From a virus (lineage: Duplodnaviria; Heunggongvirae; Uroviricota; Caudoviricetes): a stretch of 39,472 nucleotides of DNA. This document shows, one piece after another, positions 6,507-7,387 of the stretch (its first letter is position 1; every line of letters starts with the position of its first letter). The notes under the pieces are model-generated. The model was given only the letters and a program-made list of their open reading frames with translations. It had not been told where the DNA came from and searched no databases. Made by a program: the position numbers and the translations under genes. The stretch lies in IMG/VR virus record IMGVR_UViG_2695420732_000023; one strand, written 5' to 3'.

Positions 6507-6543
6507 TTGCGAGATATGCAAGTAATATTTGCGGGGTATGCAA
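6507..6543. promoter_or_regulatory. putative OL operator pair (TTGCGAGATATGCAA and TTGCGGGGTATGCAA)
   Basis: two 15-bp sites with shared pattern TTGCG-N5-ATGCAA spaced 22 bp apart, left of the cI terminator, same pattern as sites in the cI-cro intergenic region. Confidence 0.45.
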
Positions 6544-6556
6544 ATTTATAGGTAAT

Positions 6557-6577
6557 AAAAAGCCACCTTTCGGTGGC
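6557..6577 (-). terminator. rho-independent terminator downstream of cI
   Basis: on minus strand GCCACC-GAAA-GGTGGC followed by TTTTA run, 20 bp after cI stop. Confidence 0.5.
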
Positions 6578-6597
6578 CGTTGGATGGGATATTGAGG

Positions 6598-7290
6598 TTA
6601 ATTATGTCTCTTAAGGGTTTGCGACTGACTGATTAAGACCTTTCCAAAGACCATGAATCGGTGTTCGTTTTCGCTAGTAATTCCCCATTCACGGTAAATC
6701 TGGTTATCAGAAATCACCAGCAGTTTGTCAGGAATCATTTGAAGTCTTTTAACGTATATTTTGTCATCAAAACCAAAGACATATATACCATCACCATCAA
6801 ACTGATTGATGCTGACATCAACGAAGATGAGATCTCCTGGCTCAATGGTTGGACACATACTGTCCCCACGAACGTTGATAACTTTGATGTGATTGGCTGG
6901 TCGTCCGCCGAACATTGATACAGCATTATCAGTTCTGTATTCGATGGCATGAATCACATCAATGACATCACCGCCCTGGATAAGGCCATTTCCCGCACTG
7001 GCACTGATATCCAGCATTTCAATACGGAACACATCCTTCACCTGCGCAACATCCTCATTATTACTGTTTTTATATACAGTATTACTTTTGTGGGCAGAGG
7101 TAAAGAGATCAGCAATATCAACACCTAAGCTCTTGGCAATATTACTCAGTGTTTGTTCGGTAAATTGTTTTTGCTTACCCGTTTCTAAGCGCGAGATGTT
7201 CGCCGCATCTACTCCTATTGCTTCAGCGAGATCGGCGATTTTCATGTTCTTCGCTTGGCGAAGTTGTCTGACTCGGTTTCCTATGTTCAT
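6598..7290 (-). CDS. cI: CI-like prophage repressor (HTH_XRE + S24 LexA-like peptidase domain)
   Basis: N-terminal HTH (VRQLRQAKNMKIADLAEAIGVDAANISRLETGK), C-terminal S24 signature GDSMCPTIEPGDLIFVD; divergent from cro. Confidence 0.85.
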   Translation of the reverse strand: MNIGNRVRQLRQAKNMKIADLAEAIGVDAANISRLETGKQKQFTEQTLSNIAKSLGVDIADLFTSAHKSNTVYKNSNNEDVAQVKDVFRIEMLDISASAGNGLIQGGDVIDVIHAIEYRTDNAVSMFGGRPANHIKVINVRGDSMCPTIEPGDLIFVDVSINQFDGDGIYVFGFDDKIYVKRLQMIPDKLLVISDNQIYREWGITSENEHRFMVFGKVLISQSQTLKRHN

Positions 7291-7310
7291 GCGTTTATTA
7301 CATTTCTTTA

Positions 7311-7374
7311 TTGCGTGATAAGCAAATCAACTTGCGCAAAATAATTGCGTGAAATAACATGCATAGCGCGCAAT
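7311..7374. promoter_or_regulatory. putative OR operator cluster with divergent PRM/PR promoters
   Basis: three 15-bp sites matching TTGCG-N5-xGCAA (7311-7325 TTGCGTGATAAGCAA; 7345-7359; 7359-7374 as reverse complement TTGCGCGCTATGCAT) in the 97-bp cI-cro intergenic region. Confidence 0.5.
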
Positions 7375-7387
7375 ATTTGGAGGTTAT

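Follow-up and report, generated by a model that had tools for sequence, protein, structure and literature searches.

A lambda-style immunity region with its own predicted operator sequence in an SfII-like prophage

Introduction

Lambdoid immunity regions contain a left and a right set of operators (OL and OR) that are bound by the repressor CI and by Cro, and the question raised by the locus considered here is whether the 15-bp dyads lying on both sides of a cI gene are operators of this kind and which layout they would form. The locus is part of IMG/VR virus record IMGVR_UViG_2695420732_000023, a Caudoviricetes sequence of 39,472 nucleotides whose full length is called the window throughout; it is an SfII-like prophage, with positions 6300-7700 being 99.1% identical to Shigella phage SfII and the encoded CI being 100% identical both to SfII CI and to the copy in a Shigella flexneri chromosome. 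The cI gene (6598-7290, minus strand) and cro (7388-7648, plus strand) are divergent and separated by 97 bp that form one shared control region. The record for SfII in GenBank gives names to cI, cro and cII and marks a terminator, and the operators have no annotation. The analysis described below indicates that the dyads are very probably the CI/Cro operators of an SfII-type immunity cassette, that is, of a switch that appears to be lambda-like and ordinary in its mechanism and to have its own, new DNA specificity.

Dyads on Both Sides of cI

The general form of the sites is TTGCR-N5-YGCAA, 15 bp in length. The original prediction had given them as TTGCG-N5-ATGCAA, a formula of 16 nt that is one base too long and fits no site, the correct pattern being TTGCG-N5-TGCAA; the letters quoted at 6507-6521 (TTGCGAGATATGCAA), 6529-6543 (TTGCGGGGTATGCAA) and 7311-7325 (TTGCGTGATAAGCAA) are nevertheless present as written and are genuine 15-bp dyads. 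The site assigned to the other strand is also a real dyad of 15 nt (TTGCGCGCTATGCAT), although it ends at 7373 and not, as proposed, at 7374. The first two sites are designated OL1, the promoter-proximal left operator, and OL2, the second left operator, with a centre-to-centre distance of 22 bp; about 0.8 kb away, the control region between cI and cro contains OR site A (7311-7325), in an OR3-like position, and OR site C (7359-7373, ATGCATAGCGCGCAA), in an OR1-like position.

The number of matches in the window carries no weight by itself. For the exact core TTGC-N7-GCAA there are 3 occurrences where 1.4 would be expected, a count reached by 19 of 100 shuffles, and with 2 mismatches allowed the motif is found window-wide no more often than in shuffled sequence; all 3 exact matches flank cI. 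The case therefore rests on position and conservation, and the whole-window motif search suggested together with the original prediction gives a signal in these two respects. In particular, a weight matrix was trained solely on sites from other genera, with nothing taken from the window or its close relatives, and among the approximately 39,000 positions of the 39.5-kb window its four best matches are OL1 (18.8 bits), site A, OL2 and site C, in that order.

Homologues of the window CI with 54-92% identity are found in Citrobacter, Kluyvera, Klebsiella, Pantoea, Proteus, Serratia and other genera, and their recognition helix, GVDAANISRLETGKQK, is almost invariant. When loci from other genera are aligned without gaps from the cI start codon, dyads occur at the same offsets as 7311 and 7359, fixed relative to cI, in more than 20 of them; among 16 non-redundant diverged loci, site A reaches at least 8 bits at its offset in 14, the other two having a 1-bp indel, and site C does so likewise in 14. 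The pair of OL dyads is also kept across genera, 22-24 bp apart and beyond the terminator downstream of cI, with OL1 in the same position; one locus (L023) has three OL sites and not two. In the same 16 loci the density of matches of at least 9/10 was compared between the 150-bp flanks of cI and the remainder, giving 70 matches over the 4310 flank positions and 6 over the other 52,476 positions, a 142-fold difference.

A second signature comes from nine intact close homologues, in which 3 of 40 half-site columns are variable against 14 of 20 columns in the centres (P = 1e-6), and the centres (within 6507-6543 and 7311-7373) exceed the other non-coding columns as well, of which 34 of 158 vary (P = 2e-5); both P values overstate independence because the loci share descent. 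The operator centres would thus change faster than the surrounding non-coding DNA, which may reflect a tuning of affinity. A natural control for lost constraint is provided by a decayed copy of the cassette (L006; E. coli SCU-306, NZ_CP053231.1, 4117807-4120181), whose neighbouring genes are frameshifted and in which no cI is annotated; its operator half-sites are degraded, as in TTGCAAAATATGCGC and CTATGAGATATGCAA. A further sequence, L032 (NZ_JBHSON010000232.1, labelled Actinomadura rugatobispora), is a 1.4-kb contig with an enterobacterial-type cI fragment and four motif matches upstream, and looks like contamination of an actinomycete assembly.

An Exchangeable Cassette Tied to the Repressor

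The comparison by blastn with phage SfV and with e14 of E. coli K-12 delimits an immunity cassette of 1.2 kb (6414-7612) that comprises PL/OL, the cI terminator, cI, OR and most of cro. The flanks (5800-6413 and 7613-8207) are 85-99% identical to SfV/e14, while the segment between them has no similarity; both site clusters lie inside it and are exchanged whole. At the corresponding places SfV and e14 have a GGTACA-type repeat, different from TTGCR-N5-YGCAA, and the DNA-binding domain of their repressor is unrelated to that of the window CI, the S24 domain alone being alignable; for this reason e14 YmfK was discarded as a characterised relative. The association extends to the wider family: TTGCR-N5-YGCAA is found beside cI in 23 of 23 loci with the same recognition helix and beside none of the repressors of four controls with other helices (SfV, e14, 933W and an Acinetobacter outlier). 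These observations support the view that the operators travel with their repressor as an exchangeable cassette, which is the classical behaviour of an imm region. The cassette is widespread, being present in 1040 of 5426 complete E. coli genomes with 83-100% identity, and also in the Shigella flexneri serotype-converting phage SfII, in mEp460 and in several phages converting to Shiga toxin 2 (Stx2) from O157:H7 and other Shiga toxin-producing E. coli. An Stx2a_1447-type phage has this cassette at about 90% identity, and its operator centres are different.

The proposal that these OL and OR sets define the immunity specificity of the prophage is in this way backed by gene context, fixed positions, the cassette swap and the linkage to the recognition helix, all of them properties read from sequence.

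Predicted Promoters

Three promoters can be placed over the sites with good, if not complete, confidence. The leftward promoter PL (6493-6521, minus strand) would consist of a -35 hexamer TTGCAT (6521-6516), a 17-nt spacer and a -10 hexamer TATCTT (6498-6493), with a start near 6486; the window has the pattern TTGCnn-17-TATnnT, as do 8 of the 13 further loci in which an OL site is present, and AAGATA, in the PL -10 region, is invariant in close homologues. The earlier suggestion of a PL directing leftward transcription from around 6500 agrees with this element, whose -35 and spacer are overlapped by OL1.

The promoter for repressor maintenance, PRM (7297-7325, minus strand), is predicted with -35 TTGCTT (7325-7320), overlapped by site A, a 17-nt spacer and -10 TGTAAT (7302-7297). 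TGTAAT is found at this offset in 14 of 16 loci, with divergent sequence separating it from the cI ATG. Transcription would begin with the A of that start codon (7290) and yield a leaderless mRNA; no Shine-Dalgarno sequence is present upstream of this ATG. The rightward promoter PR (7332-7360, plus strand) is predicted with -35 TTGCGC (7332-7337), a 17-nt spacer and -10 TAACAT (7355-7360), and would start near 7367; TTGCGC-17-TAnnAT is conserved in 14 of 16 loci, and the other two differ at one hexamer position. Site C overlaps the PR start, and its first two bases are also the final two of the PR -10, which accounts for its always having A and not T as first base. PL, PRM and PR are alike in that an operator half-site (TTGCnn) doubles as the -35 hexamer, so that repressor and RNA polymerase would compete directly.

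The Middle of OR

The placement of a middle site in OR is less straightforward. A second matrix, built from the OL sites of other genera alone, was used for a positional profile of the cI-cro interval across the 16 loci, and exactly three peaks were obtained, at 7311, 7332 and 7359. The site at 7332-7346 (TTGCGCAAAATAATT), in an OR2-like position, has its left half-site within the octamer TTGCGCAA (7332-7339), which is near-invariant across genera, ACTTGCGCAA being found in most loci; its partner half-site is fair in other genera and degenerate here (TAATT). The median score is 7.4 bits, with at least 8 bits in 7 of 16 loci and 0.3 bits in the window, where OR thus has two strong dyads (7311 and 7359) and a middle one that is conserved in the family and locally weak. 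The right half of this site holds 7342 and 7344, two of just three variable positions in the middle segment. Its identification as the OR2 of the family is about evenly balanced, and in the E. coli/Shigella/C. braakii clade the middle site would be close to a half-site.

The original prediction had placed the middle operator at 7345-7359 (TTGCGTGAAATAACA), where a left half-site is all that is found and the matrix rank in the window is 23. A rival explanation can be built on it, namely that in the E. coli/Shigella clade the working middle operator is 7345-7359 and not 7332-7346, OR2 having shifted by 13 bp as the ancestral right half decayed and a new TTGCG arose. This would agree with the variable positions in the right half of 7332-7346, with the integrity of TTGCG (7345-7349) in all nine non-decayed close homologues and its alteration in the decayed prophage, and with the nearly equal window scores of the two candidates (0.9 bits for 7345 and 0.3 bits for 7332). 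It is nonetheless unlikely: 7345-7359 is absent outside the E. coli/Shigella/C. braakii clade, missing from all other genera scored and strongly negative in the 15 other loci; its right half, TAACA, fits at 2 of 5 positions and is already constrained as the PR -10; the 1 bp that it has in common with site C means that two dimers would hardly fit together; and its supposed centre shows no variation among close homologues, in contrast to that of true sites. The stretch 7345-7359 is consequently not supported as a conserved operator and could be a clade-specific half-site, and 7332-7346 is retained as the middle position of OR in what follows.

Other registers were tried and rejected. The everted dyad CGCAA-N5-TTGCG at 7335-7349 scores -25.5 bits, and the register 7325-7339 is weak and inconsistent across loci. 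The sequence at 7289-7303 (ATGCGTTTATTACAT), 22 bp from site A, reaches 11 bits with one matrix; this match consists of the cI start codon and the PRM -10, other genera do not preserve its left half, and it is probably not an operator.

A Probable Additional Site inside cro

A probable extra operator, GTGCGTAAGGCGCAT, lies at 7409-7423 within cro codons 8-12, 50 bp centre to centre from site C. It scores 8.6 bits in the window phage, in which both outermost bases are weakened, and reaches the full consensus in relatives such as L015; 10 of the 16 loci have a site of at least 8 bits at offset 119 or 120. In homologous Cro genes the codons are frozen at the half-site positions only, with Leu8 being TTG in 9 of 9, Ser11 TCG in 7 of 7, Gln12 CAA in 7 of 8 and Arg9 CGN in 11 of 11, while many codons are used for Leu5, Leu16, Arg6 and Ser17 and the third positions in the site centre vary freely. 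To judge from this codon usage, coding constraint does not account for the site, and the chances that it is functional appear about equal to the chances that it is not.

A broader reading, tentative and held with less confidence than the function of the site itself, is that OR is a four-site device whose fourth operator occupies the first cro codons, some five helical turns past the site over PR. Such an operator might be maintained by selection on synonymous codons, arise anew at positions that differ between lineages (codons 8-12, the cro ATG or directly after site C) and act as a downstream anchor or roadblock tightening PR repression, with the faster-than-neutral change of the centres possibly reflecting an ongoing tuning of affinity or of immunity. 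As regards the individual loci, Pantoea (L019 and L022) has an extra downstream site at the cro ATG, and Dryocola (L026 and L027) has one directly after site C.

CI, Cro and the Proposed Mechanism

The window CI is a protein of 230 residues with Pfam HTH_3 (helix-turn-helix) and Peptidase_S24 domains, in which Ala99-Gly100, Ser144 and Lys181 are invariant in the family alignment; a PDB search with CI gave no close solved relative. Cro, of 86 residues, is a Cro-type helix-turn-helix protein with a Pfam HTH_3 match, and Cro homologues co-occur with CI homologues. BLASTP detects no similarity between CI and Cro; in a MAFFT alignment of their N-terminal domains from four genera the whole helix-turn-helix aligns, and Ser, Arg and Glu of helix 3 are invariant (N-I/L-S-R-L/I-E). 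The two recognition helices, ANISRLET in CI and ATLSRIER in Cro, fit with the use of the same half-site by both proteins.

In the proposed mechanism a CI dimer, composed of a 434-like helix-turn-helix domain and a LexA-like S24 domain, would set each of its two recognition helices (ANISRLETGK) on a 5-bp half-site, the central 5 bp being left largely uncontacted. Binding to OL1 would cover the PL -35 and spacer, with OL2, two helical turns upstream, probably stabilising it; binding to site C would cover the PR -10 and start, and the middle site the PR -35; binding to site A would cover the -35 of PRM, from which leaderless cI mRNA would be produced. Cro most likely acts on the same sites, given its similar recognition helix, the cro-internal site would probably be a downstream anchor or roadblock for PR, and RecA-stimulated self-cleavage at Ala99-Gly100 would lift repression.

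Alternative Explanations and Contrary Evidence

Since the CI and Cro helices are similar, CI sites and Cro sites cannot be told apart by sequence alone, and the same similarity lends some support to the idea that Cro alone, or another factor of the cassette or the host, binds the dyads, CI recognising something else. This is very improbable, because the motif tracks the CI recognition helix in all 23 loci, including those in which a simple search revealed no homologous Cro open reading frame (L016, L017, L024-27 and L031); moreover, the positions of the OL sites make sense solely for a repressor of leftward transcription, no other repeated dyad is seen in the two control regions, and a host factor would not be exchanged together with the cassette. 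It is still harder to credit that the matches are due to chance or are mere TTGCnn -35 elements with no operator role. The exact core count, not significant alone (3 against 1.4), and the fact that every site contains or abuts a predicted -35 would be in line with this idea, and it is contradicted by the second half-site, which lies inverted 10 bp away and is conserved as well as the first according to the matrix, by OL2 and the cro-internal site, which have no promoter role, by the 142-fold clustering beside cI and by the contrast between conserved half-sites and variable centres.

The identification of the dyads as CI/Cro operators in a lambda-style arrangement has, in addition to the shared descent behind the P values, several points to its disadvantage. 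A literature search whose themes included mEp460, the octamer and mEp immunity found no description of SfII-type operators. A scan with consensus promoters called none of PL, PR and PRM, because each -35 fits the consensus at just 3 of 6 positions; the assignments are kept on the strength of the in-register conservation of the hexamers between genera. The middle OR site, at 0.3 bits, is barely recognisable in the window phage, so that a three-site OR is not demonstrated here, and of the centre-to-centre spacings, 21 bp from site A to the middle site and 27 bp from the middle site to site C, the latter is off-phase for a lambda-style cooperative pair. Finally, site A, over PRM, fits the consensus better than site C does; were match to predict affinity, this order would be the reverse of that in lambda. 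In phage 933W a consensus match need not predict operator affinity (PMC3317979), and for this reason the sites are not ranked here by strength.

Neighbouring Features

A Rho-independent terminator of the cI transcript (6561-6578, minus strand), found by a terminator scan and annotated in the SfII record, is located between the cI stop codon and OL, and a hairpin with a T-run is kept at this position in other genera as well. On the other side, the gene following cro (7641-8201) encodes a CII-like protein assigned by Pfam to Phage_CP76/YmfL; it lies outside the immunity cassette and is common to SfV and e14. This Phage_CP76 protein is present in the window although the comparative paper on SfIV describes SfII as having no homologues of N, cII and cIII (PMC3851460).

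To the left, the predicted PL would first transcribe an open reading frame at 6024-6320 (minus strand), a homologue of SfV orf33 for which Pfam gives no match and the SfII GenBank record no annotation. Between it and the cassette, a conserved element of about 65 bp (6347-6413, containing GGCGGCTACTTCGTGGGCGTCCTGCCTGTT) adjoins the left cassette edge inside the predicted PL leader and is common to SfII, SfV and e14 and also to Kluyvera, Pantoea and Buttiauxella loci of either immunity type. A search of 5700-7700 gave no match in Rfam, the element included, and the fold of the predicted PL leader containing it is not significant (z = -1.0).

Significance

The operator sequence and promoter layout proposed here could be used to predict which prophages are homo-immune or hetero-immune, and to design reporters or CI-operator decoys for studies on the induction of Stx2 and serotype-conversion prophages; a control region that is blank in current GenBank records is now open to annotation. 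Mechanistically the locus would be a standard lambdoid switch with no surprise for the specialist, and a modest interest lies in the intragenic cro site, in the use of a half-site as the -35 of three promoters and in the near-loss of the middle OR site in one clade.

Comparison with Known Systems

The immunity region of lambda is exchanged as a cassette, and the same behaviour is apparent here. Further likenesses are the divergent cI and cro with operators over PR and PRM, the second array over PL beyond cI, the leaderless cI mRNA from PRM (predicted in the window) and the LexA-like self-cleaving C-terminal domain. In contrast to lambda, the sites are of 15 bp and not 17 bp and their sequence is unrelated, OL has two sites instead of three, the middle OR site amounts to little more than a half-site, the OR sites are spaced by 21 and 27 bp (23 and 24 in lambda), the best consensus match within OR lies over PRM, and an extra site is found inside cro; sequence searches detect no similarity between the window CI and lambda CI, and SfII is reported to have no N gene (PMC3851460).

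In architecture the nearest analogue is 933W. Its OR has three sites and its OL two, all of 15 bp and with rotational symmetry around the central base pair, and conservation is higher at the outer than at the inner positions (PMC3317979); the third OR site is weak in the window. The likeness is one of architecture alone, and 933W CI was discarded as a relative: the repressors are 23% identical, the OR sequence is unrelated, there are 0 TTGCR-N5-YGCAA matches beside 933W cI, and 933W has N and nut sites and a repressor reported to be non-cooperative on adjacent sites.

With 434 the window CI shares the fold class of the DNA-binding domain, the 434 repressor N-terminal domain and a designed variant being among the weak PDB matches, and with 434- and P22-type repressors it shares the recognition of outer half-sites flanking a centre that varies and presumably remains uncontacted. 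The 434 sites are of 14 bp (ACAA-N6-TTGT), and their central bases tune affinity. The sequence relationship is distant, with E = 0.008 to 434 and about 42% identity to P22-like c2-type repressors.

Repressor sites within cro-like coding sequence, downstream of the lytic promoter, are known as OD in TP901-1 and OR4-6 in phi105, which are Gram-positive phages with unrelated repressors and in which a looping or roadblock role has experimental support; by comparison, the cro-internal site described here is deduced from conservation and codon freezing.

Lastly, SfV and e14 (YmfK-YmfT) have in common with the window the backbone on either side of the cassette, 85-99% identical in the flanks, and the same layout, in which the cI stop codon, a terminator and repeated sites lie on one side and cI, the control region, cro and a YmfL-like cII follow on the other. 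The DNA-binding domain of the repressor is unrelated and the repeats are of the different GGTACA type, so that heteroimmunity is predicted between SfV/e14 and the phages of SfII type.

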